Origin: a virus
IMG/VR virus record: IMGVR_UViG_3300031920_000119
Coordinates: 1 to 43,714 of that record
DNA: 43,714 nucleotides
Reading direction: 5' to 3' (one strand)
A program made the position numbers and the translations under genes. Below the pieces are notes generated by a model. The model had not been told where the DNA came from and ran no database searches. It was given only the letters and a program-made list of their open reading frames with translations. Within the stretch, counting starts at the first letter, position 1, and every line of letters begins with the position of its first letter. Below are positions 3,956 to 32,043 of this stretch, piece by piece.

Positions 3956-3970
3956 AATCGGAGAGAAATC

Positions 3971-4802: not shown

Positions 4803-4806
4803 GTTA

Positions 4807-5303: not shown

Positions 5304-5314
5304 ACATTATCCTT

Positions 5315-9011: not shown

Positions 9012-9487
9012 TGAGGTCCCCCGGTGTTTTGCTGTGTATCCCCGTCAGAATCCGCCCCCTGTGGGTGCACATGGCTATCCCCCACATTTGTGCCGTTATG
9101 CGTTAGCGTGTCGCTTGTTATCTCGACGTCGGTCGATACTATAGTTACGTTATCCGCCACCACTGTGCACAATCCGTCTTTATCAAAATATATGTAATTA
9201 CCGGTAAGATAGTTACCGAGTGCGACCTCGCCTTTCGAAAGACCTTTCAATGTCCTATTTTTCGGATCGTCTGCAATACCTATGCCGTTGCTCTCTTTTC
9301 CACCCTGATTGACTATAATTACCATAGAGTTATCAGGTGGGCAATGCATGAGGCCGTAGGGTGAGAATACCATAATTTTTTGAGTTTTACCCAGATATGA
9401 CGACATACCGAACCGATGGTCGCCCGCGTCGATAGTGTATAATAATTTACCCACTTTAAATAGATTTTTTAAAAAGGTAACTATCAT
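9008..9487 (-). CDS. baseplate assembly/spike protein, Mu gp45-like
   Basis: GEVALGNY core and C-terminal HVHPQG...TGGPQ, as in gp45 / P2 gpV-type proteins. Confidence 0.7.
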   Translation of the reverse strand: MIVTFLKNLFKVGKLLYTIDAGDHRFGMSSYLGKTQKIMVFSPYGLMHCPPDNSMVIIVNQGGKESNGIGIADDPKNRTLKGLSKGEVALGNYLTGNYIYFDKDGLCTVVADNVTIVSTDVEITSDTLTHNGTNVGDSHVHPQGADSDGDTQQNTGGPQ

Positions 9488-10620
9488 CTTACTGTTTGCC
9501 CCCGTTCAACCGGTTCGATGTTCTGAAAACCCGCCCCTGTCCTCGCTTTCCTGACGTCTGCTTTTGTTGGTTCCGCCTCGACTTGGTAAGCATCTGGCGG
9601 CACACTTACTAAACGGGTCCGCGTTCCCTTCCGTATATCAATGGCATACTCTACAGATTTAATCAAGAACTCACCCGATATATTTGCAAAATCATCTATA
9701 ATGTCCACAAATTGCCCAAAGTCCCACAGGGTACCATCCGACTGCGTTACACCGGCGACTGTGGCGGTGTACTCTGTTCCTGACGCCCGCCTGATATTGG
9801 ACTCCTCGGCGGCACGTCCCTTGCATTCCTGATCGTTCATTGACTCCTCGGCCTGTATCTCGTGGTACCGTGTGGCACGGATCTGGCTGTCAACGACTTC
9901 GCTTTTTCTGTCGGTGCCCTCTCCGGCATAGTCGGCCAACGAGTCAAAACCGAAATTATCTTGCGACCTGCAAAGATACTGATTAAACCTGTTTTCCTGT
10001 GACCATCTTACGGAGTATGACGACACGTTATTTGTCCGCCCTGCTGCACGGTGTAACAACGGGCTCACTGACTTATTTGATCTATCAGGGCGGAATATAA
10101 CCAAATTACTGGAACCGTCTGAAACAAGGTACACTTGCCGTTTACGTGCGAATGATACAAGATAAGACATACACGTGTCACCGCTGCCCGCGGCTTGTAA
10201 ATCTTCGGATGTAAACTCGGGTATACCTGATATCTGTTCGATTACGCCAATTTCAGCACCGATAGCCGCGATCACTTTTTCACATAGTTTTTTAAGTGTG
10301 ACCGGACCCTCTGTGACTTTTGCCGCGTCGGGGACACTTGAGTCGATTAAATCTTGTATGCTATCCCTGCCAGATATATCGATGGTGTGTGTCCCGTCGT
10401 CTCCGTTCGCGGATATACTGTCGACAAACCCTGCTATTTTTCTTATTCCTAAAATACGTATCTCTACAAAATCCCCGGTTTTGATCGGGTACTCAGACAC
10501 TGGAACGGTGCTCGAATTTGAGAAACTAAATACTCCGGCATTTGAATCGATGGACCGCTGAACGGTCGCAGACTCCCACAACGTAAATGGCTGCCCGTTT
10601 ATCTGTATCTCAAAGCTCAC
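9484..10620 (-). CDS. tail/baseplate hub protein, Mu gp44 (P) / P2 gpD-like
   Basis: 378 aa, lying between the DNA circulation protein and the gp45-like gene, as in Mu-type tail modules. Confidence 0.65.
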   Translation of the reverse strand: MSFEIQINGQPFTLWESATVQRSIDSNAGVFSFSNSSTVPVSEYPIKTGDFVEIRILGIRKIAGFVDSISANGDDGTHTIDISGRDSIQDLIDSSVPDAAKVTEGPVTLKKLCEKVIAAIGAEIGVIEQISGIPEFTSEDLQAAGSGDTCMSYLVSFARKRQVYLVSDGSSNLVIFRPDRSNKSVSPLLHRAAGRTNNVSSYSVRWSQENRFNQYLCRSQDNFGFDSLADYAGEGTDRKSEVVDSQIRATRYHEIQAEESMNDQECKGRAAEESNIRRASGTEYTATVAGVTQSDGTLWDFGQFVDIIDDFANISGEFLIKSVEYAIDIRKGTRTRLVSVPPDAYQVEAEPTKADVRKARTGAGFQNIEPVERGQTVR

Positions 10621-20122: not shown

Positions 20123-21430
20123 TTAAGACGCGTTTATTTTTAAAATCTTTAATGCTTCAAAATTTGTCACGGCTCCGCCTGAACGTTTTGTACTGTAAAA
20201 TTTAACGTAAGGTTTAGCTGTATAAGGGTCTCTCAATACTCTAACACCAAATCTATCAACGATGGTATAACCCTCTCCAAAATCGCCATATACCACGCTC
20301 AGTGCATTTGCTGCAACCTCTGGCATGTCTGCCATGATGATAACACGCTTTGCCAAAAGGATACGGTCTGTGCCCTCTTTAAGCATAAATGGATTAAGAA
20401 GATAATCCCCGTTAGTGCCCTGTAACTGCATAATGTCACTGAATGTCGCTCTTGACATACCGAAAACCGCTGACATTTGGTAATCATCGATCAACTGATT
20501 TTGCAAATTGATCAAGTCGTTAGGTTCATCAAGCGTGGCCGCTGTCCCAGTCGCCGCAATCTGCTCAACAGCGTCGCGCTGATATGTTCCGGCGGTGGTC
20601 CATGCGTCATAGGATAGGAAACCTTTCCATTTTTTAGCACCATTACCGAGTACCCCGGCAGTATTTTCAAGTCTGGAAAATTTACGAGTAACTTTACCCT
20701 GTAACCAACCTTCGAGGTCGAAACCTGCGTCGTCGAGCATTCTCTGTGTAGCTTTAGGCTGCGCATACAATTCATGCACGGGGATAGTCAGTAAACCAAT
20801 CTGTGGGGAGTCTGTGTCGGATCTGGTCTCTACCTCACCCACCCATCCGGCAGCGGCTTCGTCGTCATCAATAACAAATTCCATACTATTACCGGAAGTC
20901 GTTACCACATTGGCAACAAGACGCAGAGGGGATGTTTCAAATATACGTTTTATAATCTGTGTTGAACGCTCTGGGGTTATAAAAAACCCACCGTCAGGAT
21001 TGGACCCTTCGACCAGGTCTTTGACATATGCAGCGATCTTTATTTCATCTGTATGAAACATGGTCTTTCTTGCCACATCTTCACAATATGTCTGCACAAC
21101 GTCTGTCGGGATCTGAACACCCTTGCGCAAATAAGCGTAAAAAGACGCTTTATGCTCCGGGGCCGTTGCTCCGACGTTCTTATTTTTACCGTTCTCAACG
21201 ACAGCCGCTTCAATGGCGAATACACGTTCCATGAGTTCTTTGGCGTTTATTTCCTGTTTAAGCTCCTGAATGGCAACAAATCCTTTCGATGCCTGGTCGG
21301 CCGTTTTTTTCATAGCGTCAAGGTCGAGACCGTCGTACTGTTTTTCGAGAGACGTAACCTTCTCCTGAACGGCTGTGATACCCCCGACGACTTCGTCTAT
21401 TTTTTCAAGTAATTTATCTTCGGTTGACAT
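20123..21430 (-). CDS. major capsid protein, HK97 fold
   Basis: 435 aa with an N-terminal coiled-coil delta-like region. It follows the prohead protease, and its sequence pattern is typical of HK97-family MCPs. Confidence 0.85.
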   Translation of the reverse strand: MSTEDKLLEKIDEVVGGITAVQEKVTSLEKQYDGLDLDAMKKTADQASKGFVAIQELKQEINAKELMERVFAIEAAVVENGKNKNVGATAPEHKASFYAYLRKGVQIPTDVVQTYCEDVARKTMFHTDEIKIAAYVKDLVEGSNPDGGFFITPERSTQIIKRIFETSPLRLVANVVTTSGNSMEFVIDDDEAAAGWVGEVETRSDTDSPQIGLLTIPVHELYAQPKATQRMLDDAGFDLEGWLQGKVTRKFSRLENTAGVLGNGAKKWKGFLSYDAWTTAGTYQRDAVEQIAATGTAATLDEPNDLINLQNQLIDDYQMSAVFGMSRATFSDIMQLQGTNGDYLLNPFMLKEGTDRILLAKRVIIMADMPEVAANALSVVYGDFGEGYTIVDRFGVRVLRDPYTAKPYVKFYSTKRSGGAVTNFEALKILKINAS

Positions 21431-21432
21431 GT

Positions 21433-22137
21433 TTAAAACTCCTTTAATGAGGTTAATATTGAATCAAGCTTCTTTATACACTCACCGTCGCGGTGGTCGT
21501 CTTGCTCGTCTCGAAGCATTCCGACAGTTTTTAAAGCGTTAATAACTTTCTTAGCATTTTTATTTGAGAAACGCACGCCTTTTTTTAAAGCGTCCTCAAT
21601 CGCACGTATGTCCGTGAGATCGAGTTCAGAAAAATCGGACGCTTTAACATCGAGAATATTTGCAAATGGGTTCATGGGTTCATCAACGACACTGCCTTCC
21701 CACACTTCGGCCTTTGCTATGTGGCGCACACCTTCCGAGATAACCGGTTCCGAAATCATTTCCCATCCGATAGAAAAATCGGTCAATACTTTTTGTCTGG
21801 CCAGAGAAAACGCCTCTTTGCCCTGCTGCACTTCGAGATTTATCTCACCGATACCAAATAGCCCGGTACTGTCCTCTCGCACTGTGTCAATAGGAAACCC
21901 ACCGATAGTGCGCCCGTGCATATCCTTTAAACGGATCTGTCTGTCTGTTTTCTTGTGGCGCTCTATACTCTCGGCAAATGCACCCGGGAGAAACTTGTCT
22001 TTAATACCGGACCAGTCGCCCCTATCAACGTCATATGTGGCAATATAACCGGATACGGTACCAACTGGTACGCCATTCCGTTGTATCGTTTTGGTGTCGG
22101 TTATCGGTCCACCGGTCATTTGTTTTATTATTATCAT
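21433..22137 (-). CDS. prohead protease, HK97 family (S78/U35)
   Basis: GYIATYDVDRGD...FLPGAFAESI...HG..IGG...EINLEVQQGKEAFSLARQKVLTDFSIGW matches the HK97 protease pattern. Confidence 0.8.
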   Translation of the reverse strand: MIIIKQMTGGPITDTKTIQRNGVPVGTVSGYIATYDVDRGDWSGIKDKFLPGAFAESIERHKKTDRQIRLKDMHGRTIGGFPIDTVREDSTGLFGIGEINLEVQQGKEAFSLARQKVLTDFSIGWEMISEPVISEGVRHIAKAEVWEGSVVDEPMNPFANILDVKASDFSELDLTDIRAIEDALKKGVRFSNKNAKKVINALKTVGMLRDEQDDHRDGECIKKLDSILTSLKEF

Positions 22138-22145
22138 AATACCCC

Positions 22146-22493
22146 CTATGTCGGGCTTGTCGTTGTTGTATTAGGTGAGTCTCGCAAACCATATCGGACC
22201 GTTTTGAAACTATCATCCACACTGGCGTTATAATTGGCATGTAAAGTGAAAAATCTATCCGACAGACTCGAAATTCTGTTATTCCCACCGGGTATCTTTA
22301 TCTCACCGGCTGGTAAATCAGGTGTGACAACTCCCGTCCAGGCAATCAAGGTGTTTTTACCGTCCGTCAATTTATACTCAAGCAAATCGACGGACGTAAT
22401 GGGGTCGCCGTTCTCGTCTGTCAGATTATACGTTATGACAGTGAGGTTACCTTCCTCGACACATGCCTCTATTTCAAATGATCCACAGTCCAT
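22146..22493 (-). CDS. hypothetical protein (115 aa)
   Basis: ORF in the late operon between the accessory island and the protease. Confidence 0.55.
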   Translation of the reverse strand: MDCGSFEIEACVEEGNLTVITYNLTDENGDPITSVDLLEYKLTDGKNTLIAWTGVVTPDLPAGEIKIPGGNNRISSLSDRFFTLHANYNASVDDSFKTVRYGLRDSPNTTTTSPT

Positions 22494-22503
22494 AAAATCA
22501 CCT

Positions 22504-22869
22504 TTATGTCGGGTCTAATACTTCATGATCCCACGTAGAAAATGTAACAGTTCCGGCGGCAGTTAGTAACTGACTCGTGCATGTCGTGACATCTTTTATT
22601 ACGGCGGCTAAAGATAAAATGATATGGAGTGCTGTTCCTGTTCCGGTAATAGTGACGCCCGTCTTTTCAGCCATAGCGACCTTACGCCCGGACGCGTCAC
22701 CGTCACCGATAGTATAGTCGTTCCCGTCACCGGCAACCATGGCCACATTGGCAAGGGTTCCCGATAGATCCGTCGGTGTCGATACGTCGTCCACAACATC
22801 CATGCGCGTTGAGGTCGCTATCCCCGTTAATAGTAAATCGATTATTGCATCAGGTACAAATTTACTCAT
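22504..22869 (-). CDS. hypothetical protein (121 aa)
   Basis: ORF with overlapping coupling to the upstream gene. Confidence 0.55.
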   Translation of the reverse strand: MSKFVPDAIIDLLLTGIATSTRMDVVDDVSTPTDLSGTLANVAMVAGDGNDYTIGDGDASGRKVAMAEKTGVTITGTGTALHIILSLAAVIKDVTTCTSQLLTAAGTVTFSTWDHEVLDPT

Positions 22870-23053
22870 TTTTTACCCCCGGTATTTTTGCTGGTATAAC
22901 CATAGTTATTTTAACGTCACCGTTTGGTAACTTTTCTTGTTTATAAGAATCCCCGGCCGCTTCTCTTAACCGCTGACCAAATGACTTTATTTTCAGATCG
23001 TCAGTGTCTATTTTCTGCGTGACGTTCTGTACGTCAAGAACTACGTCTTTCAT
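22862..23053 (-). CDS. hypothetical protein (63 aa)
   Basis: Short ORF overlapping both neighbours. Confidence 0.45.
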   Translation of the reverse strand: MKDVVLDVQNVTQKIDTDDLKIKSFGQRLREAAGDSYKQEKLPNGDVKITMVIPAKIPGVKNE

Positions 23054-23346
23054 ATTTTTATCGTTCCCACATCTTCGGGGGTGATGGTGACTTTTTCATC
23101 GACATTAATCGTGACCTCATCGACATTGATAGCGGCTTCCGGCGTCCTGGATAACCTGTTCAACCGCCCGCCCTTCGGATCTGTCAGCAAGTTATCTGAC
23201 ACCATAAAGTCGAGGGTGTCGCCATCGACCCCGTCAGGATGAATAATAAATAAAACCCCGCGGTCAAAAGTCTGTTGAACGGATACTTTGAATTCAGTGA
23301 CGCCTTTTGTCTTGAGTAATTGTTCGAGTGTTATGAGTTTTGGCAT
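23050..23346 (-). CDS. hypothetical protein (98 aa)
   Basis: ORF with an SD-like aaGGAGatatcATG. Confidence 0.55.
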   Translation of the reverse strand: MPKLITLEQLLKTKGVTEFKVSVQQTFDRGVLFIIHPDGVDGDTLDFMVSDNLLTDPKGGRLNRLSRTPEAAINVDEVTINVDEKVTITPEDVGTIKI

Positions 23347-23355
23347 GATATCTCC

Positions 23356-24825
23356 TTATTGTATATCTAAGTCAATACCGGGTGTCTTGATCGTCATATC
23401 AATACCCGGTGTTTTAATTGTTAAAGTTATAATTAATTTATCACCGACCATTTTAAAGACAATATTATCAATCACCTGGCCCTGGTCTAATTGATCTATG
23501 CCAAGAAAATTGCTTTGTGTCAAGTCTAAATTATCACTTGATTGATTTTGTATAATCTCAGCTATGCCAAGGATTACACCTATATCAAGGGTAATCTGTT
23601 CTGTTTGCTGGCTTTGCTCCACGCTATCGATACTCAGATCATATTGCGGAATCAGGTTTATAATATCTATATTCTGACCCTGTACGGATTTGGCTATCTG
23701 CAAAATAGTATCCGTTGAAAGAGTTATATTATCAACAGACTGAGGCTGAGAAATATCATTTATGACAACGATATGGGCCTGTGTAAGATCTATATTATCG
23801 CTTGATTGCGGCTGGTCGCTATCTTGGATTAGTAATGTTCCGCCGACTTGCAAATCGATATTATCTATATTCTGGGATTGAGGGGAATCGTTTATAATAA
23901 CAGTACTGGATTGAATCAAATCAAGATTATCCAATACTTGAGGCTGATCAATGCTATTTATGATAATAACATTTGCTTGAATCAAGTTCGGACTTTCAGA
24001 CGATTGCGCCTGATTTATCGGATTAATACCTAAAACGTGCTGCTGAATTAAATCAAGGCTATCAATCGTCTGCCCTTGGTTCAACTTATTAGGCAATAAA
24101 GTTGAACCTGTTGATATTACCACTGACGGTATAAATAAAGGCTCAAATATCTGGTACGGATTTGCATTTAATGATACTATTTCTACTGGCGTAAGTTCTC
24201 TATCCCAAAAATAAACATAACTTAACTTACCTTCAAAACCACGACTATAACTCCCAGGTTCACGAGAGCCTATTGTATAAACATTATCAATTACGCCAGA
24301 ATAGTTATTTGTATCAACTTCAACTGCTTCATCATTCCCATCGACATAAACTTTTAAACTCTCACGCAAGCCTACGACATTGTGCTGTATCCAAGGGGCA
24401 AATACAGTAGTCGTCATTCTACCTGCACTACCAGATTCAGTTGGAATAATAGCAATATGACCATCATATCGATCAGCTAATAAACATTGAGCAGAGGCTG
24501 ACCCAACCTTGGCATTGGCGATACCTAAACTGCCGGAGACACCACCCAATTGAAGACCTGCTGCAACGCATTGAGGTAACGCTGTAGGAGGACTTGTGGA
24601 CTGAACCCCATTTCTTGGGTCACTTGAAAAATCAAGACCATATGCTTCCCATGTTGGTGGATAAGTACTGTGGAATACTCCATTGGCAATATCACAACAA
24701 GAATAAACAGTACTGCCACCACCTTCATTAAACACCCAAGCAGCAAGCAACCCTTGAGCTAAAGGATGTGTCCTATTGAGTTTAAACCCATACGGTGGCT
24801 TGTTTGTATGTGGTAAATATATCAC
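23356..24825 (-). CDS. LamG/concanavalin-A-like lectin domain protein with 10 tandem 22-residue repeats
   Basis: The N-terminal half contains LLAAWVFNEGGGSTVYS...GKLSYVYFWDRELTPVEIVSL (LamG_3-type pattern). In aa 246-465 a QxQ motif recurs every 22 residues (positions 250, 272, ... 448). The C-terminus has an IKTPGIDMT/IKTPGIDLD duplication. Confidence 0.7.
   Translation of the reverse strand: MIYLPHTNKPPYGFKLNRTHPLAQGLLAAWVFNEGGGSTVYSCCDIANGVFHSTYPPTWEAYGLDFSSDPRNGVQSTSPPTALPQCVAAGLQLGGVSGSLGIANAKVGSASAQCLLADRYDGHIAIIPTESGSAGRMTTTVFAPWIQHNVVGLRESLKVYVDGNDEAVEVDTNNYSGVIDNVYTIGSREPGSYSRGFEGKLSYVYFWDRELTPVEIVSLNANPYQIFEPLFIPSVVISTGSTLLPNKLNQGQTIDSLDLIQQHVLGINPINQAQSSESPNLIQANVIIINSIDQPQVLDNLDLIQSSTVIINDSPQSQNIDNIDLQVGGTLLIQDSDQPQSSDNIDLTQAHIVVINDISQPQSVDNITLSTDTILQIAKSVQGQNIDIINLIPQYDLSIDSVEQSQQTEQITLDIGVILGIAEIIQNQSSDNLDLTQSNFLGIDQLDQGQVIDNIVFKMVGDKLIITLTIKTPGIDMTIKTPGIDLDIQ
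23431..24090 (-). repeat. 10 x 66-bp degenerate tandem coding repeats (22-aa unit, xxxQxQxxDNxDLxQxxxxxIx)
   Basis: Exact 22-residue periodicity of the QxQ..DN.DL motif counted in the translation. Confidence 0.75.
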
Positions 24826-25244
24826 GCTGTTGTGACTCCGTATGTTTCAATCTCAAGTGTAGTTGTTCCAGTTGTTTGACCTGATTTATTCTGCACAACT
24901 ATATCAAAGCTCACAGCTGGTATTTTAATATCCCTAACAATTACATTCTGTGCTACGTTTACAGCCTCTATTGGGATAATTGCATCAGGCATTCTTGCAG
25001 GAACAGTATTATATGTCTCCTGCGTACCGTCAATATTATCTAAAATCCAAATATAAAATGCGGGATTATCCTCAGCAGACCAATCAATAATGGCAAGCTT
25101 AAGCATTAATGCTGCAAATAGATCTTTATCAGATGAATTATCTATTTCGGCTGATGATTGTACCACAGCATCATTAGCTAAAGATCCAACACCAATTGTT
25201 ACAGTCTGTGACGTTTTCCTCGCTGTCCAAGTTGTCTCACCCAT
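24822..25244 (-). CDS. hypothetical protein (140 aa)
   Basis: ORF coupled (ATGA) to the LamG gene. Low GC. Confidence 0.55.
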   Translation of the reverse strand: MGETTWTARKTSQTVTIGVGSLANDAVVQSSAEIDNSSDKDLFAALMLKLAIIDWSAEDNPAFYIWILDNIDGTQETYNTVPARMPDAIIPIEAVNVAQNVIVRDIKIPAVSFDIVVQNKSGQTTGTTTLEIETYGVTTA

Positions 25245-25253
25245 ATTAACCTC

Positions 25254-25544
25254 CTATAAACTCACACCAGCATAAGCATTAAACAAAGAACCCATGACAA
25301 AAGCTAAATCACTTGTATAATCTGTGCCTGCAATTAGGTGTGCTTTGATTGTTGAGTTAGTTGCAAAGCCACGATAGACTTGTTCTTTATTAGCTGAACC
25401 ATCAAGGATTGTCTTTGCATAAGCAATACGCTCAGTATGATTAACTGTATTTGCCGCTTCTGCCATTACAGCTATTGCAGCAGCTACCATTTCTTGTTCA
25501 ATCTTGCCTTTAAACTCTTTATTAAATTTCCAGTAATCAGCCAT
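25254..25544 (-). CDS. hypothetical protein (96 aa)
   Basis: ORF in the low-GC island with SD-like aGGAGataaatATG. Confidence 0.55.
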   Translation of the reverse strand: MADYWKFNKEFKGKIEQEMVAAAIAVMAEAANTVNHTERIAYAKTILDGSANKEQVYRGFATNSTIKAHLIAGTDYTSDLAFVMGSLFNAYAGVSL

Positions 25545-25574
25545 ATTTATCTCCTATTTTATATTAAAGTGTAA

Positions 25575-25976
25575 TCAGTTATTTGTAATTGTAATAGTCG
25601 TGGTTGCAGGAACAACAATCTTTATTGGAAAGTTATTCTCTGGCTGAATGTTCTCAGCAATAGTCATATCGGCTACATTGCTATCCCCACTTTCACCAGA
25701 TGTATTATAAGCTCTTACTATAAAATACCATGTGCCAGGATTGAGTTTAAAATGATCTGCAAGCGCACCATCTTGATCAGGAGTACCAACCTCAAGGACA
25801 TTGCCTACATCCTCAGTAAAAGGGTATACACTTGGAACATTTCCCCAATATACTTGGTATCCATCTACATCGCCTGTGCTTGCATCCCATCTTAATACAT
25901 CTGCACTCACTGAGCAAACCCCGATTAAAAGAACGATCCCGATAATAAGTAATAGACTCGCTTTACGACTTCGCAT
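25575..25976 (-). CDS. secreted or membrane-anchored FN3/Ig-like domain protein
   Basis: The N-terminus MRSRKASLLLIIGIVLLIGVCSVSA looks like a signal peptide or anchor. The motif LRWDASTGDVDGYQVYWG resembles fibronectin type III. Confidence 0.6.
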   Translation of the reverse strand: MRSRKASLLLIIGIVLLIGVCSVSADVLRWDASTGDVDGYQVYWGNVPSVYPFTEDVGNVLEVGTPDQDGALADHFKLNPGTWYFIVRAYNTSGESGDSNVADMTIAENIQPENNFPIKIVVPATTTITITNN

Positions 25977-25990
25977 ATTTTACCCCCCCG

Positions 25991-26776
25991 TTAGTTAAAA
26001 GTATAAAAACTTGCACAACGGCAATTAATAGTGTTTTCCACCGTTGCACCTCTTGAATTATCACTCGGATACATCATTTGCTGTCCGTTTACAATAAACG
26101 GTTTATTAATATCTACAGAGGGTACACGCGAAGCTCTGTGCCCTGATCGCACGTTCTTATCCCCGACGTCTGCCCATTCCTTGCGTGACGTGGTCGATGG
26201 CGTTCTTTCACGTGTGACCGCTGCCATGGGTGGCAATCCTGCAATCGAGTACGCTTCAATAAACTTTGTGGACTCCGCTGCGGCCTGTGTCTCTGTCATA
26301 ATTATCGATGACTCACGACCCTTGAATTTACGGCCTAAAATGGTCGCAGAAACGACGGCAAGCTCCCGATTGGTATAATCGGTCGTACCTTCGTCCGAAA
26401 ACGCCTGTCTCGCCTGTAGTATCGCGTCATCCATGTTATTTTGAGTCGTGTTAACTATACGTTCGGCGGAGTCAGGCGCATTTTTATCCGCCCAGGCTAT
26501 CAAAGCGGCGAGGACAGTGTCGTCCACGTTGTCCTGTTTAATATTATTCTTAACGACACCAGTGAAACCGTTTTGTACGCGCCTGTAATGGTTCCGTATC
26601 AACACTGTCCACTGCGGCATGTATCTTGCTGCACGTATTCTGTTACCTGTTGCCACACCAATACGGAACTCAATACTGATACGGTTAAATAGCCGACGCA
26701 CTTCGGGCCTGAAACGCTTCTCATATATAATCTTGAGTTTTGTCTGCTCGTTAAGGTTCATTTGTGCCCCCGGCAA
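25991..26776 (-). CDS. head morphogenesis protein, Mu F / SPP1 gp7 family (probable start ATG 26761)
   Basis: C-terminal DKNVRSGHRA...NCRCASFYTF matches the Phage_Mu_F signature. Confidence 0.8.
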   Translation of the reverse strand: MPGAQMNLNEQTKLKIIYEKRFRPEVRRLFNRISIEFRIGVATGNRIRAARYMPQWTVLIRNHYRRVQNGFTGVVKNNIKQDNVDDTVLAALIAWADKNAPDSAERIVNTTQNNMDDAILQARQAFSDEGTTDYTNRELAVVSATILGRKFKGRESSIIMTETQAAAESTKFIEAYSIAGLPPMAAVTRERTPSTTSRKEWADVGDKNVRSGHRASRVPSVDINKPFIVNGQQMMYPSDNSRGATVENTINCRCASFYTFN

Positions 26777-26889
26777 TACCCCCCATTGTGTCGGGTCATC
26801 TTGTTACAACTCGGCACAAGGCATCTTCTTAATGGTTTGGGCTTTTTCTTACACTTAAACCTCGGTATAAATCGTGAGTCGCACCTCAT
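26758..26889 (-). CDS. 43-aa basic Cys/His-rich micro-ORF (MRCDSRFIPRFKCKKKPKPLRRCLVPSCNKMTRHNGGYCRGHK)
   Basis: Not in the track. It fills the portal to Mu-F gap, and its stop overlaps the ATG at 26761 (ATGA). The CxxxxC...GYCxxH pattern looks zinc-binding. The SD is weak. Confidence 0.35.
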   Translation of the reverse strand: MRCDSRFIPRFKCKKKPKPLRRCLVPSCNKMTRHNGGYCRGHK

Positions 26890-26903
26890 ACGGCCGTTGT
26901 CCA

Positions 26904-28223
26904 TCATTCGTCCACCTCGTCCCGTGCCGGTGGTGCGTCAGGGTCGGCATTTATGTCCGTTCCTATCGGTACCTGTGTGGCGTTCTGGTAAATCACGTCC
27001 CCACCTTCCACGTCGTCCCTGTTAGGTATCAATTCCCGCAGTTCGTTCGTAGTCTCGACACCAATGTCCTTACGTTTCTTTAACTCGTCAAGACGGCGCG
27101 CCTTGAGTGGTTGTAATGACTCCGGGTTATATGTTATCCTGGCCGATCCGAGTTCTATACCAAACCGCGGCAATAAAAACCGGGTAAGGCCCGCGAACAG
27201 TTTATCCGCATGAGGTAACACCGCAAAGTCGTATAGCATTTCGATTGCGGTTGTCATGTTATTGAATGTACTTGCTGTCGTGGTGATCAGTGGCAACGGG
27301 ATCTTATACCGGAAATATATCGACTGTGAGGCGATCTTGTCAAGTTCAACGTAATCCATGTCTTTGTTATTAACGCCCATTTCCTCGACTTTTTCAACAT
27401 CACCACCCGACATTACGCCGATCTTACCTGCGTTCTCTGGTCCGGCAAGTGTCTCATTGATTCGTTTTGTACGTTCCCTATGTGCGTCGTCATCTAATTG
27501 CTCGTCTTTGAATATTATCAAGAGCGACATACGGCCACCATTGTCAAGCATCTTGAGGTTATGAATGCGACCTTTGATCTGTTGATTTGTTTCGAGTGCA
27601 GCAGCCTGTATCGGGCTATCTGCCGATCCGTCCGTCGACATGCTGCTAAAACCCGCAATACGGTATAATTCTTTTAACGGTCCGTCATAATACCGATTGA
27701 TGTGCTGTTTTGCCAGTTCTACCGTGTATGTGCCCGTCGCTGTGCCCTGTCCGATATAATATACGTCAACGTATTCACTTCCGCCGGTTGTTACGCTGAC
27801 ACCTGTCGGTTTAACGGGAAAGACCTGTGATGGTGACAATGTTATCGCGCCCAGGCCGAAAAAATGTGTTTGATTTGTGAGCAGGTAATGTCGGGAGATC
27901 CTCGCCGCAAAGTCCGACCACGTCATATGCGCGTTGGGGCTATTGAGCAAATCGAGTACCGGGTGTTTTTCTATCATCGTTCCGTCTTCAAGCATTATAA
28001 CGGGTGTTATCTGCTCGAAACTATCCGCTATCATGTCCACAGCGGTGGCAATACTTGAGTTCTGCCGGTAAAACCCCATTGCTTTCTGTGGGGTTATCTT
28101 TTCACCGGTTAACGAGCATCCGAGGAAATCATTCGCGAGATTATCGAGTATTATACTCCTCGTGTTACCCTGTGACGCTTTAGTTTCTTTTGTCCATGGT
28201 AGTCGCCATTTCATCGTTAGCAC
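26904..28223 (-). CDS. portal protein (alternative start ATG 28214)
   Basis: 439 aa, downstream of TerL. The sequence has the general character of the phage portal family. Confidence 0.8.
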   Translation of the reverse strand: MLTMKWRLPWTKETKASQGNTRSIILDNLANDFLGCSLTGEKITPQKAMGFYRQNSSIATAVDMIADSFEQITPVIMLEDGTMIEKHPVLDLLNSPNAHMTWSDFAARISRHYLLTNQTHFFGLGAITLSPSQVFPVKPTGVSVTTGGSEYVDVYYIGQGTATGTYTVELAKQHINRYYDGPLKELYRIAGFSSMSTDGSADSPIQAAALETNQQIKGRIHNLKMLDNGGRMSLLIIFKDEQLDDDAHRERTKRINETLAGPENAGKIGVMSGGDVEKVEEMGVNNKDMDYVELDKIASQSIYFRYKIPLPLITTTASTFNNMTTAIEMLYDFAVLPHADKLFAGLTRFLLPRFGIELGSARITYNPESLQPLKARRLDELKKRKDIGVETTNELRELIPNRDDVEGGDVIYQNATQVPIGTDINADPDAPPARDEVDE

Positions 28224-28573
28224 CCGTCCTTTTCTCTATTAAATATTACAGGCTCGACTTTCATGTGCAGCATGAGTTTGATAATGTTTTGATTGAGGCA
28301 CCGTATTTCATCGAACGCTCGCCGGGTGTTCTCCGCCTCACGGTCCACATCGGATTTAACGACGCGAATATCTGTTTTGACCTGTTGCCTGTGCTCGATA
28401 CATGTAGAATTATCGATAAGATTTAACCCACCTTTTTCTAAGAACATAATATCTTTTATACTTGTGGTGACGTCCTCGACTTTTTCGACTCGGTACTTCA
28501 TAGCCGCAAAGACGCCCGCCATCGACGCGACGTATATACATACGTAAATCAGGTCTTTTAACTCGAATATCAT
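28217..28573 (-). CDS. hypothetical membrane protein (N-terminal TM helix plus coiled coil)
   Basis: LIYVCIYVASMAGVFAAM is a hydrophobic helix. The gene lies between TerL and portal and is coupled to TerL. Confidence 0.55.
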   Translation of the reverse strand: MIFELKDLIYVCIYVASMAGVFAAMKYRVEKVEDVTTSIKDIMFLEKGGLNLIDNSTCIEHRQQVKTDIRVVKSDVDREAENTRRAFDEIRCLNQNIIKLMLHMKVEPVIFNREKDGC

Positions 28574-30045
28574 TAGCTCACCATAAATTTACCGTGTTTG
28601 CTTAATTCAGTTAATGCCCATACAACCCAGTCAACCCTATTCGGGGATCTACCGTTACTTAAACCGGTTACCGGGTCAAAGTCAAGCATTTCATCCTCCA
28701 ATTTTGTTAAACCTGGTTTATGCTTTACAAATCCCTGCGCATACAGCGCCGCAATTGGTTCCGCACGGGCCACTTTACCCTTTGACGCATGTACACGTAT
28801 GATTTTACCTTTAAAGCCTGCATTACGCAGCGTATCCTCACACATATCCCCGCCCTGGTTTGTCTCAATTACTATGCCCGCGGCCTCAAGATATTCATAT
28901 AAATAGATCGCTGTATCTGCCCACTGCTTTGGTGTACCTTTTCGGGTCAGATCCATATCGACCGTGTATTTATCCGGGCCGTGATACGACGCAGCGCCGA
29001 CCCCGTGCTCGTCTGACGTCTTGCTGTTGCTCACCGCCGGATCGACCGCAATTATGGTACGTATGGGGGTGTTAAAAATACCAATCTGTGCATTGTTTAT
29101 ATCATCCTCTTGCCATATCATTAACTCGGCAATACGTTTCGGCGGGTCCTGCATGTTCTGGCTTGCATGTTTGCGCCTGTGAGCTTTCACGGCCACCTCA
29201 TGCTTTTCATTATGTTTAAACCGCCACAGCCACCCGTCAGGTAGTCCGTGCGGCATGAGTATGCCGTGCGTGTTTTCCTTTGGATACTTGTAACCTTCGT
29301 TGTCGATTATCATCGGCATACAAAGATGGTGCCACATCTCACCGCTGCCGCCTCTTAACAGGTACCCGGATAAATCATCCCAGTGTATCCGCTGCATGAT
29401 AACAACTATCGGGACGGACTCAACCGCGAGCCGGCTCGATACCGTTTCGTTATAATCAGTGTTGACGCCGCCCCGTTTGACTTCGGAATCCGCGTCGCCA
29501 GGTTTTAGGGGGTCATCTATGATCAGCGCGCCAGTGAATTTACCCTTCTGCATGTGTCCTGCTCGAAATCCAGTTACCTGGCCCCGAGTGGACGACGCAC
29601 GTACACCCCCGTTTTGTTCGGTCCACCATATTTTTTTAGATTTGGTGTCGTCTTTAGTTTGGACCGGCCACATATCTTGATACTCTTGACTATGTACGAG
29701 TTCCCTTGCAGACGCAGAGTTCTGTAACGCCAGGTCGCTCGAATATGACAGGTGCAGGAACCGACAGCGTGGATCTACGGCCAGACCCCGTGCCATATAA
29801 TTTATAGCGGCCATTTCCGTTTTTGTGTACCCTGGTGGCACATTAATAATCAATCGACTTATGTGCTGTGGGTCATCTGGGGATAACATGGTGCGGTCAA
29901 GTGCTGCCTGCATAACCGGATGGTGCTGCCCGATAGTCATTTTATTACCGAGGCGTTTTTTCATGAAATAGCGATTAAAATACAACCCGTCAAGCTCACA
30001 TTCGAGCTTTCGGGCTTCGGTTATCAGTGGGGGGTTAACAGTCAT
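28573..30045 (-). CDS. terminase large subunit
   Basis: 490 aa. Contains an ATPase Walker-like PPGYTKTE, an IIDDP Walker B and a C-terminal nuclease-like region (IIAVDPA...). Flanked by TerS and portal. Confidence 0.85.
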   Translation of the reverse strand: MTVNPPLITEARKLECELDGLYFNRYFMKKRLGNKMTIGQHHPVMQAALDRTMLSPDDPQHISRLIINVPPGYTKTEMAAINYMARGLAVDPRCRFLHLSYSSDLALQNSASARELVHSQEYQDMWPVQTKDDTKSKKIWWTEQNGGVRASSTRGQVTGFRAGHMQKGKFTGALIIDDPLKPGDADSEVKRGGVNTDYNETVSSRLAVESVPIVVIMQRIHWDDLSGYLLRGGSGEMWHHLCMPMIIDNEGYKYPKENTHGILMPHGLPDGWLWRFKHNEKHEVAVKAHRRKHASQNMQDPPKRIAELMIWQEDDINNAQIGIFNTPIRTIIAVDPAVSNSKTSDEHGVGAASYHGPDKYTVDMDLTRKGTPKQWADTAIYLYEYLEAAGIVIETNQGGDMCEDTLRNAGFKGKIIRVHASKGKVARAEPIAALYAQGFVKHKPGLTKLEDEMLDFDPVTGLSNGRSPNRVDWVVWALTELSKHGKFMVS

Positions 30046-30529
30046 CGTCTTTTAACATCTGTTTACGTATGGCGGCATATTGCCCTTTGTCGAGCACTGT
30101 CGCTGCAATGGGTGCGCCCTCTGGACCCGATAACTCTCTGGCCTGTCGGTCCACGAGGCCGAGTTCCTTGGCAATTATATTCTGGTTCAGCATGTCCGCT
30201 GCCGCGCCCGTCAATTTCTGTTGATAGATTACACCCTCAACGGCCCCGCATGTGTCCGCATACCCTGGCTTATCCCTGTAATTACGCCAGGTGTTATGCG
30301 TGACGCCGAGGAACGTACATAAACCGATAGTGGTCATGGCACGCATTTTCGGCACGTTCATGGTGCTGCCCATGCCCTGAAATTTTACGGTCTCAGCCGC
30401 TTGCAGGGGGTTATCTTCGACCCATTGGAAATATTCGCAACATGCGAGCCATAGATCCTCTGGTGTTGCAAATATCTTGTCAGGTGCCCCTGTTGCCCTG
30501 GCCATCCATGCCGGTATTTGCTCTTTCAT
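30035..30529 (-). CDS. terminase small subunit (start taken at MKEQIPAW)
   Basis: The pattern PDKIFATPEDLWLACCEYFQWVEDNPL is typical of TerS. SD GGAAGGA is present, and the ATG overlaps the upstream TAA (TAATG). The track ORF extends to 30547. Confidence 0.75.
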   Translation of the reverse strand: MKEQIPAWMARATGAPDKIFATPEDLWLACCEYFQWVEDNPLQAAETVKFQGMGSTMNVPKMRAMTTIGLCTFLGVTHNTWRNYRDKPGYADTCGAVEGVIYQQKLTGAAADMLNQNIIAKELGLVDRQARELSGPEGAPIAATVLDKGQYAAIRKQMLKDDDC

Positions 30530-32043
30530 TAGAAAAGTTCCTTCCACCTAAAAGATAGATCGTATGTGCCGTTTGTACCGACAGGGCTTGTGATAAAAAG
30601 TGTCATAATGTCCTCTGGTAGTAATTCAAGCTTTTGTTCTTCAAGATCTGTTATCAAAACCCTGTTAATTTTACCGAGAGGTAGTGAAAAATCGAGTATT
30701 CCCGACCCATAGGTAACAACCGCGTCGGTGGAATACTCAATAGTTGAGTCGTCGGTGTTCACATCCGTCCACGATGGCGTATTCGTTATTGTACTATTTC
30801 TCTCCAATTCCCATAACGATGACCTACTTAGATCCGTATTGAATGACAGCAACGTTAATACACTGTTTATATAATTAACCAACCCGGCAAACGCATCTTT
30901 ACTCCTAAACGTCACCACCATGAATACACCAGCGGTTATTGCCTGCTCTGTCTCTGCAAATGTAAAAAGCCGCGCCGCCGGATCTAAACCACCACCATCT
31001 GTTACGCCCGCGGAAAAACTGCCTATCTTAATAACCATATTGGTGTTATTTCCGGTGTTTTCGACTTCCCCCCGTGGTTGTAGGTTCGTATTCAGTATGT
31101 GCGTCTCTGTGGCGGTATTTGGGTACTCTATTCTATTAAGTTTTTGCCAACACCCGCATGGTGCCATTACTTCAAAATTTATTACCGCAAACCCCAGATA
31201 TCCAAAACTGATACGGTAAACATTACCTTTTGTGGGATCAAATATCCCGTCTACCGTATCAAAAACAGAGGACAAGTCAATACTTGTATTAAAATCAACC
31301 GCATCCCTGCGCCTCGTAACGCAAAAGTTAACACCTTCATACCCGATCAAAAACCCGTTTTCAGAATCGAAAATCCCCGCTCTTTGGGCACTGTCGGCTT
31401 TGGGTGTTGTAAATACAGTGGTGAAATTAGTAAAAGCCTCTTGACCTGGTAAATACCGCAATGCTTTTCTGTTCGATATGGCTGCCGCGCCTGCAACGTT
31501 GGTACTGGTCGCAAGGGTGAGCATCGAGTCCACCACTGTTATGGTGCCACCATTGGCGACCGCAGGATTTGCATTACCTGCCGGAAAACCATATTGAAAC
31601 TGGGCGGCAATGTCTGCCTTTCTTACGGCCGTAATTTTCTCACCGAAAACCGTATTTAATGACATTCGGTTCCGGGGGTCTATGTCGCTTACTGGTAGCG
31701 TTCCACTGTCTTCGGGTACTACCTTACCAAATGGGTCGCCGATGAACCCAAAACCTGAGTCAACGATCAGTGCGGCCATGGAACCCGGTAGGCTACACCG
31801 CGCGTAATATACGTCGTCAGGACCATCGGCACTGAATGGCTGTAATTTGCGCTTTACACCCAGTAAAAAATATGATTCGTTTTTATTGAACGTGATTTCT
31901 GTATCAGAATGGTTTATAAGCACCTGTCCGGCGCTTAAAGTTTCTTGCAGCCAGCACGTGCCACCCGCACCGGCTGCGGTTATAGGCGTCCAGTCATCAC
32001 CGTTTATGTCGTGCACCACTATAGCCACATGTTTACCCTCCAC
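30529..32043 (-). CDS. hypothetical 499-504-aa protein, first gene of the late operon (probable start GTG 32028)
   Basis: Long ORF. SD GGAGGG precedes the GTG at 32028, and no SD precedes 32043. The protein is predicted to be beta-rich, with no family recognised. Confidence 0.7.
   Translation of the reverse strand: MEGKHVAIVVHDINGDDWTPITAAGAGGTCWLQETLSAGQVLINHSDTEITFNKNESYFLLGVKRKLQPFSADGPDDVYYARCSLPGSMAALIVDSGFGFIGDPFGKVVPEDSGTLPVSDIDPRNRMSLNTVFGEKITAVRKADIAAQFQYGFPAGNANPAVANGGTITVVDSMLTLATSTNVAGAAAISNRKALRYLPGQEAFTNFTTVFTTPKADSAQRAGIFDSENGFLIGYEGVNFCVTRRRDAVDFNTSIDLSSVFDTVDGIFDPTKGNVYRISFGYLGFAVINFEVMAPCGCWQKLNRIEYPNTATETHILNTNLQPRGEVENTGNNTNMVIKIGSFSAGVTDGGGLDPAARLFTFAETEQAITAGVFMVVTFRSKDAFAGLVNYINSVLTLLSFNTDLSRSSLWELERNSTITNTPSWTDVNTDDSTIEYSTDAVVTYGSGILDFSLPLGKINRVLITDLEEQKLELLPEDIMTLFITSPVGTNGTYDLSFRWKELF

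Follow-up and report, generated by a model that had tools for sequence, protein, structure and literature searches.

We found that the window, the whole 43,714-nucleotide stretch of viral DNA that was analysed, carries an island of eight extra genes between its MuF-like gene and its prohead protease gene. The presence of these genes was confirmed, they entered the phage by horizontal transfer, and the island is both mobile and a compositional mosaic. It probably encodes an accessory virion fibre built from a rope, beads and an immunoglobulin (Ig)-like adaptor, with a swappable lectin head. Fibres of the beads-on-a-string type have been discovered only recently; if our reading is true, the island represents one in the form of a plug-in cassette that moves between unrelated phages.

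An accessory island in the head module

Eight minus-strand open reading frames (ORFs) occupy positions 22,146–25,976, exactly as given in a preliminary description of this DNA, and are separated by 8–30 nt or overlap. Both flanks were identified as backbone genes outside the island. Upstream lies a MuF-like minor head or head-morphogenesis gene (25,991–26,776, minus strand, 261 aa; phrog_2468, E=1.4e-19), 81% identical to its counterpart in phage L001 and 65–75% identical to those of L002 and L006; downstream lies the gene for the prohead serine protease (21,433–22,137, minus strand, 234 aa; Peptidase_S78, E=1.6e-14; phrog_80, E=1.2e-26), 90% identical to that of L001. The preliminary description had proposed a comparison with relatives lacking the island, and such relatives were found: in L002 and L006 (capsid 76–78% identical) the MuF gene abuts the protease gene with no island between. 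The island was also missing from four remoter relatives (49%) and present in the closest relative, L001 (86%). Because the MuF gene directly adjoins the protease gene in L002 and L006, the island is accessory.

The segment 23,356–25,976 had been described as lower in GC than its surroundings, and this was borne out. Its GC content was 0.382 compared to a window mean of 0.465 (sd 0.03); 1.5% of equal-sized windows were lower still, and those sit elsewhere, near 3 kb. The GC3 values of its four genes (i133, i96, i140 and i489) were 0.27, 0.24, 0.24 and 0.29, respectively, compared to 0.43–0.58 for backbone genes. We found no minus-strand terminator-like sites within the island, and the count of promoter-like sites there was not above the shuffled expectation. 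Judging from the tight or overlapping spacing and the lack of internal terminator-like sites, we propose that the island is co-transcribed with the head genes.

A lectin-headed protein with ten 22-residue repeats

The 489-aa protein i489 (23,356–24,825, minus strand) begins with a LamG-like head, continues with exactly ten repeats of 22 aa and ends in a duplicated IKTPGID, all three of which had been recognized in the preliminary description. The concanavalin-A-like lectin head (residues 1–235; 24,121–24,825) matched Pfam Laminin_G_3 just under the cut-off (E=1e-5, 26.2 bits compared to 27.6), and a family profile matched LamG-like structures (4qvs, E=5e-8; tetanus toxin Hc-N; pappalysin). When the low-confidence i489 model was searched with Foldseek, lectin domains were the only matches. 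The heads of i489 homologues are unrelated or have no match to any Pfam family, and the head region of i489 has no DNA homology to L001. The lectin head is presumably the variable, distal, glycan-binding end, and i489 as a whole very probably serves the virion as a fibre or adhesin.

The repeats (residues 236–455; 23,461–24,120, minus strand; consensus DN.DL.Q...L.I.....Q.Q..) make up the proposed rope. QxQ recurs at residues 250, 272 and so on to 448, and a repeat-unit HMM revealed 10 units with every spacing exactly 22 residues. The BLOSUM autocorrelation was 1.3–1.5 at lags 22 and 44, while other lags and the N-terminal half gave about −0.3. TRF found no DNA tandem repeat in the region, and the 22-residue periodicity is therefore kept at the protein level; the repeat DNA is 71–73% identical to that of L001. 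Homologues have a spacing of 21–23 residues and 7–13 units (about 21 in L020), and QxQ is replaced by HxH in the Microcystis phage Mae-JY22 and in L020 and by SSG in L019. Furthermore, in 13 of 16 rope proteins the autocorrelation was higher at lag 44 than at lag 22. This two-repeat super-period would fit a dimeric bead unit, but the repeat counts are both odd and even (7–13), which does not fit strictly two repeats per dimer.

Alternatively, the repeats might fold on themselves into a β-solenoid or a trimeric β-helical shaft bearing the LamG head. The small protein i121 would then be an independent part of a collar, whisker or garland, or else an assembly factor, and would simply travel along with the fibre gene. 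β-helices have Asn/Gln ladders, and the strict 22-residue period with its conserved D/N and QxQ positions resembles them. An AlphaFold model of the repeat region, which the preliminary description had suggested as a check for a solenoid, indeed looked like one as a monomer, with three short (4-residue) strands per 22-aa unit and pLDDT of 60–78 in the middle repeats. The HxH variants of Mae-JY22 and L020 also recall the axial, metal-binding HxH motifs of the trimeric needles of the T4 gp37 type (PMC12609058). However, the model of whole i489 was poor (pLDDT 56, pTM 0.41; 34-sequence alignment), and the repeat part matched no PDB β-helix in structure or sequence.

A conserved protein with a predicted whisker-like fold

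The bead protein i121 (22,504–22,869, minus strand, 121 aa) is encoded by the most conserved gene of the cassette. Its AlphaFold model, an N-terminal helix followed by a β-sandwich, had a pLDDT of 96.5 and a pTM of 0.87, and at the level of this model the bead fold is established. The preliminary description had left this key gene undescribed. The best PDB fold matches found by Foldseek were 9mt4 chains K, L, M and I and 9c39_K (TM 0.55–0.61 on the query and 0.62–0.68 on the target; probability 1.0; E=4e-3 to 2e-2). These chains are the whisker protein (gp5/gp31) of Bas63 and Sf14, as confirmed by a search with the Sf14 gp31 sequence. The model also matched 9rkv_A, a 'tail fibers' entry of phage 7-7-1 that is probably its garland protein (TM 0.54, probability 0.96), and, more weakly, Fiber I of the podophage GP4 (8jou_a; TM 0.53, probability 0.63, E=0.8). 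The fold matches are virion components, namely whisker, Fiber I, garland and baseplate arm. No sequence-level match of i121 to Pfam Gp80, Sf14 gp31 or GP4 gp80 was detected, and the predicted tie to the whisker and Fiber I proteins is confined to the fold (TM about 0.6, Foldseek E about 4e-3). The i121 family comprised 147 clusters at E≤0.001, all of 100–127 aa, and i121 identity across unrelated phage backbones was 76–81%, the bead being far more conserved than the repeats.

The cassette in unrelated phages

The same gene set (repeat protein and proteins of about 70, about 60, 121 and about 110 aa) was found after portal/MuF in the E217-like myoviruses L008 and L010 and between terminase and portal in the lambda-like phage L009. 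Reduced cassettes were present in another E217-like phage (L011), among the head–tail connector genes of an HK97/GTA-like siphovirus (L013), in a tail-fibre module (L014), in an SU10-like podovirus (L012) and in Mae-JY22, so that at least five unrelated backbone types carry the cassette. The accompanying capsid families include HK97-type Phage_capsid, PF09950 Major_capside, lambda gpE and the SU10 MCP. The conserved mobile core is the repeat protein with the four small ORFs downstream of it, none of which the preliminary description had characterized, and not the four low-GC genes that it had treated as a unit. Across the 13 contexts that we examined, a 20–22-aa repeat protein was always encoded within three genes of the bead gene. 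A bead gene was nearby in 7 of 7 contexts selected by the rope, and a protein with 20–22-aa periodic repeats was found within three genes in 4 of 4 selected by the bead (Mae-JY22, L018, L019 and L020).

Two of the small ORFs lie between rope and bead. Protein i98 (23,050–23,346, minus strand, 98 aa) matched phrog_38873, of unknown function (E=2.6e-5). It is 57–78% identical to proteins in L001, L008, L009 and L010, whose backbones are unrelated, and was seen only in cassettes that also hold an i115-type gene. Protein i63 (22,862–23,053, minus strand, 63 aa) carries a conserved (V/L)L(D/E)(V/I)QNV strand motif and has homologues in the same four phages. ORFs of 35–90 aa with this motif directly precede the bead gene in L011, L012, L013, L018, L019, L020 and Mae-JY22, and a small ORF of this kind stands there in nearly every cassette.

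After the bead gene comes i115 (22,146–22,493, minus strand, 115 aa), the proposed collar or adaptor protein. With its profile we found about 30 proteins of about 110 aa and also giant adhesins, whose LapA and Big_7 repeats, Ig-like and in tandem, were matched in as many as 13 stretches of one protein. These matches to Ig-like repeats are partial (positions about 9–52), and from them we judge that i115 is probably Ig-like. We detected no similarity of i115 to Gp77, the MG2-like proteins or Sf14 gp30. In L014 (E=3e-19) and Mae-JY22 (E=5e-27) its slot is taken by a member of PF23148 ('GP4 fibre-tail adaptor gp77'), and in L011 and L013 by an MG2-like Ig protein. The C-terminal tail of i489 (residues 456–489 plus stop; 23,356–23,460, minus strand), with its duplicated TIKTPGID, is the proposed anchor for the Ig-like adaptor, and we found that the type of rope tail changes together with the family to which the gene following the bead belongs. 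Two copies of TIKxPGID pair with an i115-type gene, two or three of TEYNIxLT with an MG2-like Ig gene, and PF23148 Gp77 with three of ETRALxI (Mae-JY22) or with a different, non-repeated tail (L014). A self-folding shaft would leave unexplained why the bead always neighbours a 20–22-aa repeat protein, why it is far more conserved than the repeats and why GP4-type adaptors stand alongside the pair, and we consider such a shaft rather unlikely.

A variable block around the lectin head

When the window was compared with L001 by blastn, identity was 76–77% up to 25,995, none was found over 24,085–25,994, and it was 71–73% over 23,152–24,084 and 79% over 20,124–23,053. The unmatched block (24,085–25,994; GC3 0.24–0.29) holds the LamG head, i140, i96 and i133, which by this comparison were exchanged together, the exchange falling where the repeats begin. 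The i140 gene (24,822–25,244, minus strand, 140 aa) lies directly upstream of the rope gene with a 4-nt overlap, a position filled by proteins of 137–146 aa in L001, L013 and L014. It is 28% identical to the 141-aa ORF of L001 (tblastn E=2.5e-7, phmmer E=3.8e-9), but no similarity was detected to the ORFs of L013 (146 aa) and L014 (137 aa), nor any match in Pfam and PHROG. Protein i96 (25,254–25,544, minus strand, 96 aa) looks helical by eye and matched phrog_22340 weakly (E=0.004); counterparts of i96 and i133 were not found in L001.

The variable companion of the lectin head, i133 (25,575–25,976, minus strand, 133 aa), had been described as an FN3-like protein with a signal or anchor peptide. 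The signal peptide was upheld by eye (MRSRKAS, a hydrophobic stretch and VSA|D), whereas the FN3 assignment was borderline (Pfam fn3 E=1e-4, 22.8 bits compared to a cut-off of 25). A single homologue was found (phmmer E=1.2e-10, 40% identity), encoded directly behind the rope gene in an unrelated phage (L019/L021); it keeps the signal peptide, and the C-terminal strand motif PENNxP..V.VP...TITxN is conserved. The oddity noted in the preliminary description is thus real: a putative Sec signal peptide is hard to square with a virion part assembled in the cytoplasm.

The signal peptide, together with the atypical GC3, the relatives that dispense with the island and the occurrence of LamG/ConA-like folds in glycanases, would suit a non-structural moron whose secreted or host-surface-acting proteins serve, for example, in superinfection exclusion or glycan modification. 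We regard this as very improbable, since i133 alone bears an export signal, the island is embedded in the late operon with 8–30-nt spacers or overlaps and no internal terminator-like sites, the fold matches of i121 are virion components, and sister cassettes include a bona fide fibre-tail adaptor family. The preliminary description had instead likened the lectin and FN3/Ig proteins to Hoc, as adhesins displayed on the capsid surface. The location within the head module and the LamG, FN3-like and Ig-like modules speak for such decoration, and the up-facing whiskers of Bas63 do touch the capsid (PMC12609058). However, Pfam and PHROG searches and a structure search with i121 turned up nothing akin to Hoc or to any fold used in capsid decoration, the cassette accompanies differing capsid families and also occurs in tail-fibre modules, and the conserved signal peptide makes i133 unlikely on a capsid assembled in the cytoplasm. 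Capsid display is therefore quite improbable, while the view of an accessory head-module island that very probably encodes a lectin-headed fibre or adhesin is supported.

A proposed fibre and its relation to known systems

In the fibre that we favour, i489 would supply the head as well as the rope, the latter being extended and formed by its ten 22-aa repeats. The i121 beads would dimerise through the N-terminal helix and clamp the rope by β-strand complementation, as the whiskers of Bas63 and Sf14 do on the collar 'rope' and as Fiber I does on the GP4 rope protein. At its duplicated TIKTPGID tail the rope would engage Ig-like i115, which, possibly with i98, would dock the fibre on the particle, most likely at the neck or collar because the gene position is Sf14-like, just after portal/MuF. 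Protein i63, with its VLDVQNV strand, may chaperone or cap the beads. The N-terminal LamG lectin would be the distal tip and bind a host-surface glycan for reversible adsorption, and the head, i140, i96 and the secreted FN3-like i133 would be exchanged as a block via recombination at the repeats. We infer the bead–rope binding, its stoichiometry, the attachment site and the glycan binding, together with the roles of i63, i98, i140, i96 and i133.

The preliminary description had held that portal, MuF, protease and capsid genes are normally contiguous, which overstates the oddity of the insertion: in the Ounavirinae (Sf14), gp30 and gp31, the genes for collar and whisker, lie between portal and protease (PMC11821841). 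The Sf14 order is portal gp29, collar/rope gp30, whisker gp31 and protease gp32, and its whisker genes thus take the slot of the window's island. Whisker proteins form dimers, have an N-terminal helix and a sandwich that is incomplete, and are threaded bead-like on a rope domain of the collar, and in GP4 an independent rope protein carries five Fiber I dimers (PMC12609058); the 8jou entry contains 10 Fiber I chains. The neighbour of the Fiber I gene (gp80) in GP4 codes for a 325-aa protein in which a 20-aa repeat occurs about 11 times; this protein was not found among PDB sequences, and we infer that it is the GP4 'rope'. In Sf14, Bas63 and GP4 alike, dimeric beads are threaded along an extended 'rope' peptide, and an Ig-like collar or adaptor holds them.

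Results

An acquired island in the head module

Every gene in the head-module part of the window is carried on the minus strand. In order of transcription these are the small terminase (30035-30547), the large terminase (28573-30045), the portal (26904-28223), a 49-aa ORF (26758-26907), a MuF-like gene (25991-26776; phrog_2468, E=1.4e-19), the island, the prohead protease (21433-22137; Peptidase_S78) and the HK97-type capsid (20123-21430). The island runs from 25976 down to 22146 and comprises eight ORFs of 133, 96, 140, 489, 98, 63, 121 and 115 aa, named here by length as i133 to i115. Downstream of the capsid gene, this myovirus encodes a contractile tail and a baseplate of the Mu-like type, which has a tail fibre of its own. 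The gene for a 504-aa virion structural protein (30529-32043, minus strand; phrog_1645, E=1e-26), which is 74% identical in the closest relative, sits directly upstream of the small terminase and so outside the main structural block. The 49-aa ORF between portal and MuF-like genes is rich in Cys, Lys and Arg (MMDNGRMRCDSRFIPRFKCKKKPKPLRRCLVPSCNKMTRHNGGYCRGHK), overlaps its neighbours at both ends and may encode a zinc-ribbon-like peptide.

A preliminary description had proposed that the island is an insertion into the head module. Relatives were collected via the capsid protein, which gave seven related IMG/VR contigs. In two of them, with capsids 76-78% identical (L002 and L006), the MuF-like gene is followed directly by the protease, as an insertion predicts, and four relatives at 49% capsid identity likewise lack the island. 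The closest relative (L001, capsid 86%) carries an island at the same site. Since the island is present in these two phages and absent from the other relatives, the cassette was gained by the lineage of the window and L001. In the island-free L006 the protease match, at 8907-9968, falls into two parts (residues 1-176 at 8907-9437 and residues 162-233 at 9753-9968), with about 300 nt of extra sequence within or between them.

Comparison of the two island-bearing phages at the DNA level revealed 76-77% identity up to the end of the MuF-like gene (25995), no detectable similarity over 24085-25994, 71-73% identity across 23152-24084 and 79% from 23053 through the capsid. The breakpoint coincides with the start of the repeats in i489; in the L001 island the head is a different one, preceded by only two genes. 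After the cassette was gained, the LamG head and the three genes before it were replaced as a single block. Megablast and blastn searches with the island and with the head module found no match among GenBank phages.

The four upstream island genes are low in GC, as had been noticed, and the difference is sharper at third codon positions, where GC is 0.24-0.29 in these genes, 0.38-0.53 in the four downstream island genes and 0.43-0.58 in backbone genes. No terminator-like sites were found on the minus strand within the island, and promoter-like sites were not above shuffled expectation; we take the island to be part of the late operon. The lowest GC of the window is at 3001-5500 (0.28 at 3501-4000), at the plus-to-minus switch of gene strand and just past the gene for a 1022-aa family-A DNA polymerase (128-3196, plus strand).

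The repeat protein i489 is a putative rope

The repeats reported for i489 were borne out. Its QxQ motifs stand at residues 250 to 448 in 22-residue steps, a repeat-unit HMM found ten units with a spacing of exactly 22, and the IKTPGID end is duplicated. In the autocorrelation of the protein, lags 22 and 44 far exceed all others, and Tandem Repeats Finder (TRF) found no tandem repeat in the DNA of the gene. The proposed LamG domain was just under the Pfam cut-off for the single sequence (Laminin_G_3, 26.2 bits against 27.6, E=1e-5, residues 155-216 only), but the family profile matched LamG-like structures over profile positions 35-225, namely 4qvs (E=5e-8), tetanus Hc-N, pappalysin and pentraxins. 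By profile similarity, the head belongs to the LamG / concanavalin-A-like superfamily, at superfamily level only. Homologues of i489 have the repeats and the C-terminal end in common, and often not the head.

The repeats may form a free-standing solenoid or a trimeric shaft, as a solenoid-type fibre had been suggested earlier. In the AlphaFold model, each 22-aa unit in the middle of the repeat region is drawn with three short strands, at a pLDDT of only 60-78, and the repeat variants with HxH are reminiscent of the metal-binding needles in T4-type fibres. The monomer model is, however, poor overall (pLDDT 56, pTM 0.41), its LamG part included, and a Foldseek search of the PDB with it returned matches to the lectin head only and none to a beta-helix. 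A PDB sequence search with the repeat region gave no meaningful match. We favour the reading of the repeats as a rope, a strand on which other subunits would be threaded. In 13 of 16 such proteins the similarity at lag 44 is greater than that at lag 22, which hints that ropes are built on a two-repeat unit. An even repeat number, considered as a sign that each dimer takes up two repeats, was ruled out, since odd and even counts are found alike (7, 9, 11 and 13 occur).

Two loci carry unusual periodic proteins near the bead gene described below. In L020, a 922-aa protein (7767-10535, plus strand) contains an uninterrupted series of about 21 HxH repeats of 22 aa (LAHAHxLDxVxLTQ...) and, after it, a C-terminal domain of about 130 aa in two copies; encoded beside the bead, it would be a much longer rope. 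In L018 (plus strand), the bead gene is flanked by two differing periodic proteins (4953-5882 and 8599-9540): a 309-aa protein with N-terminal 21/42-aa repeats and a 313-aa ORF (called as 291 aa on the contig) of strong 22-aa periodicity. The 607-aa protein that follows the bead there is without repeats.

The i121 model resembles whisker proteins

Pfam and PHROGs searches with i96, i140, i63, i121 and i115 gave nothing informative. We found that i121 (22504-22869) was modelled well by AlphaFold from a 50-sequence alignment (pLDDT 96.5), with an N-terminal helix at residues 7-17 followed by nine strands in a beta-sandwich. The best Foldseek matches in the PDB were chains K, L, M and I of 9mt4 (the Bas63 connector) and chain K of 9c39 (the Sf14 neck), with a probability of 1.0 and TM scores of 0.55-0.61 (query) and 0.62-0.68 (target). 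Searching by sequence with Sf14 gp31 showed the matched chains to be the whisker protein, namely gp31 and its Bas63 homologue. The whisker fold, an N-terminal helix and an incomplete beta-sandwich of about 110 aa, is present in the i121 model. Further fold matches were A511 gp105 and, from the Agrobacterium phage 7-7-1 'tail fibers' entry 9RKV, chain A, which is probably the garland protein of that phage, and several matches in a viral structure library were labelled 'tail-collar fibre' or 'minor tail'. GP4 Fiber I (8JOU_a) was matched more weakly (TM 0.53, probability 0.63, E=0.8).

At the sequence level, hhalign of the i121 family gave a probability below 1% with Sf14 gp31 and no similarity to GP4 gp80. 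PF23140 (Gp80) did not match i121, while GP4 gp80 itself scored E=6.5e-41, and a PDB sequence search with the i121 profile gave no meaningful match. The family of i121, the putative bead of the cassette, comprises 147 clusters at E<=0.001, all of 100-127 aa, all 'hypothetical' and none with a Pfam domain. Around an invariant His at a similar relative position, i121, Sf14 gp31, GP4 gp80 and the homologue in Microcystis phage Mae-JY22 have a short strand motif in common (GTALHIILS, ATVSHFSLW, VTVTHYAVF and GTATHVALL); as the alignments fall short of statistical significance, the motif is only possibly a trace of shared ancestry of these four beads.

Tails of the putative ropes vary with the adaptor-slot gene

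The gene after the bead differs between cassettes. In Mae-JY22 and L014 it encodes PF23148, 'Podophage GP4 fiber-tail adaptor gp77' (E=4.6e-27 and E=3.4e-19), and in L011 and L013 a weak MG2-like Ig protein. PF23148 is absent from the window, where this position is taken by i115, a protein without any Pfam match. When a six-sequence i115 profile was searched against 1.8 billion representatives, it matched proteins of about 110 aa and also, many times per protein, the Ig-like LapA and Big_7 repeats that giant adhesins carry in tandem, so i115 is probably Ig-like. No similarity was found by hhalign among the i115-type, MG2-like and Gp77 families, and the i115 family gave a probability below 1% with Sf14 gp30.

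The C-terminus of the rope changes together with this gene. It carries TIKxPGID twice beside the i115 type and TEYNIxLT two or three times beside the MG2-like type; with the Gp77 type, the tail of Mae-JY22 has ETRALxI three times and that of L014 is another one, without repeats. Such tracking is the pattern expected of an interlocking tail-adaptor pair. Almost everywhere, an ORF with a (V/L)L(D/E)VQNV strand lies directly upstream of the bead (i63 in the window); a chaperone or cap would be our guess for its role.

The cassette recurs across unrelated phages

Contexts of i489 homologues contain a recurring set: a repeat protein, an ORF of 37-98 aa, often one of 58-64 aa, one of 121-125 aa and one of 92-115 aa. 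It lies after the portal or MuF gene in two E217-like myoviruses (L008 and L010), between terminase and portal in a lambda-like phage (L009) and in another E217-like phage (L011), after the capsid gene in an SU10-like podovirus (L012), among head-tail connector genes in an HK97/GTA-like siphovirus (L013), and in the tail-fibre module of L014, whose backbone was not typed. The bead is 76-81% identical among L008, L009, L010 and the window, phages whose backbones otherwise have nothing in common.

The association holds in both directions. All contexts selected by the repeat protein contain the bead, and in all those selected by the bead (Mae-JY22, L018, L019 and L020) a protein with 20-22-aa periodicity is encoded at most three genes away; in the contexts examined, the bead is thus always accompanied by such a repeat protein, the ten-repeat one in the case of the window. 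In Mae-JY22 (L015, PP438414), the only cultured carrier found, a 455-aa LamG-like ORF with eight 22-aa repeats in which HxH replaces QxQ is followed by an ORF of 90 aa, then by the homologue of the bead and last by an ORF of 111 aa; the candidates for rope, bead and adaptor lie at 54-1421, 1699-2100 and 2102-2437. The start codon of the 455-aa ORF is the GTG at locus position 54, and the CDS in the deposited record (locus 744-1421, 225 aa) is apparently a truncated call of this ORF; the genes around it are all annotated 'hypothetical'.

The preliminary description was partly right. An acquired accessory island encoding an adhesin had been recognized correctly; the unit had been drawn in the wrong place, as the genes left undescribed form the conserved core. 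The suggestion that its products decorate the capsid in the manner of Hoc did not hold up: Pfam, PHROG and fold searches found no match to Hoc or to a decoration protein, and the cassette occurs with at least four capsid families.

An FN3-like, putatively exported protein accompanies the head

The first island protein, i133, had been described as FN3-like. A match to Pfam fn3 was indeed found over residues 27-102, at a borderline score below the cut-off (22.8 bits against 25, E=1e-4). A search of phage genomes and IMG/VR with the single sequence gave nothing. In an unrelated phage (L019), the gene directly after the one for the LamG rope encodes the sole homologue (40% identical, E=1.2e-10), which shares with i133 the apparent signal peptide and the strand motif at the C-terminus and keeps the characteristic W, Y and GxS positions of FN3. 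A profile built from the two sequences added only L021, and L021 and L019 are the same phage. The association of i133 with LamG-rope genes is, on these sequences, probably real.

By eye, the N-terminus of i133 is an apparent SPase-I-type signal peptide. A lipoprotein was set aside, again by eye, since the Val before the Cys is not lipobox-like and VSA followed by D fits signal peptidase I. If exported, i133 is hard to fit into a particle assembled in the cytoplasm. A receptor-masking role like that of T5 Llp would be speculative.

Discussion

On the basis of the bead fold and the gene neighbourhood, we infer that the island encodes a candidate accessory beads-on-a-string fibre of the GP4 Fiber I or Ounavirinae whisker kind, a better model than Hoc-like decoration. 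The fibre is probably docked at the neck. A more far-reaching reading, which we regard as unlikely in its entirety, is that the cassette is a self-contained 'plug-in' adsorption organelle with swappable docking, heads and cognate i133, moving among unrelated tailed phages. The rope repeats would recruit beads via donor-strand-like complementation, interchangeable pairs of C-terminal tail and Ig adaptor (X, Y and Z types) would set the docking place of the fibre, and interchangeable N-terminal heads would decide the binding target. Each head would be exchanged together with its cognate Sec-exported FN3-like protein. In the envelope of the infected cell, i133 would mask or modify the same glycan receptor, for instance to prevent superinfection or the trapping of progeny on debris, as Llp does for T5.

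To our knowledge, only a few of the virions solved so far show beads-on-a-rope fibres. The GP4 fibre was reportedly solved in 2023 and those of Sf14 and Bas63 in 2025, and they are said to have been described as lineage-specific curiosities. If the reading given here is true, a sequence-distinct version is widespread in environmental phages, bears a lectin head, has its length set by the number of 22-aa repeats and moves between myo-, sipho- and podovirus backbones. It would be a modular way to gain or swap a host-adsorption device with the baseplate untouched, a natural scaffold for engineered display of binders, and an annotation for a large set of 'hypothetical' head-module genes.

Comparison with known systems

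T4 Hoc and other Ig-like capsid decorations resemble the cassette in being accessory, dispensable and surface-exposed and in carrying adhesin-type domains, which probably mediate weak glycan binding. Decoration of the Hoc kind combines a capsid-binding domain with tandem Ig-like domains and is tied to one capsid lattice, whereas the cassette is tied to no capsid type and sometimes lies in tail modules. In the T5 pb5-Llp system, the gene for a receptor-binding protein lies beside that for a secreted or lipoprotein receptor blocker; similarly, the exported i133 is encoded beside a putative receptor-binding head and exchanged with it. Llp and i133 share no homology, i133 being FN3-like with an apparent SPase-I signal and no lipobox (both by eye).

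The Ounavirinae collar-whisker (Sf14 gp30/gp31, PDB 9C39; Bas63 collar/gp5, PDB 9MT4) provides the best fold match of i121. The Bas63 whisker, an N-terminal helix and an incomplete sandwich, forms dimers threaded 'like beads on a string' on a rope that is an N-terminal extension of the Ig-like collar protein and completes the whisker sandwiches (PMC12609058). The gene order in Sf14 is portal gp29, gp30, gp31 and protease gp32 (PMC11821841), so collar and whisker occupy the same slot between portal and prohead protease as the island does (portal, MuF, island, protease). Both systems have an Ig-like partner, a putative one, i115, in the cassette. The ropes of Sf14 and Bas63 are short extensions of the collar that each carry two dimers; the putative rope of the window, in contrast, has ten 22-aa repeats and forms the C-terminal half of a separate 489-aa lectin-headed protein, the Ig-like candidate is a separate 115-aa gene, and the small genes i98 and i63 are extra.

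In GP4 (gp80 PF23140, gp77 PF23148, PDB 8JOU) the rope is an independent, longer protein; five dimers of Fiber I sit on it, and it is interlocked with an Ig-like adaptor (PMC12609058). Entry 8JOU contains 10 gp80 chains. Beside gp80, the Ralstonia phage GP4 genome (MH638294, 8948-9925, minus strand) encodes a 325-aa 'virion-associated protein' (gp79) with about eleven 20-aa G-rich repeats. It has no Pfam family, and since it is absent from the PDB sequences, we infer rather than read its identity as the published rope. The number of its repeats, about eleven, agrees with that of the Fiber I chains in 8JOU, ten per fibre.

The cassette is like GP4 in that its sister cassettes in L014 and Mae-JY22 encode a true Gp77-family adaptor directly after the bead. 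No sequence-level link to the solved systems was found for bead, i115 or repeats, and the cassette is by sequence a member of neither the GP4 Fiber I nor the Ounavirinae whisker families. The G-rich 20-mers of GP4 are unrelated in sequence to the QxQ/DN 22-mers of the window, the GP4 repeat protein is without the LamG head of i489, and the GP4 fibre attaches to a podovirus tail, whereas the window phage is a myovirus with a Mu-like baseplate. The cassette is distinguished by a separate, putative lectin-headed 22-aa-repeat rope protein, a new bead family, three interchangeable adaptor-tail types and mobility across unrelated backbones.
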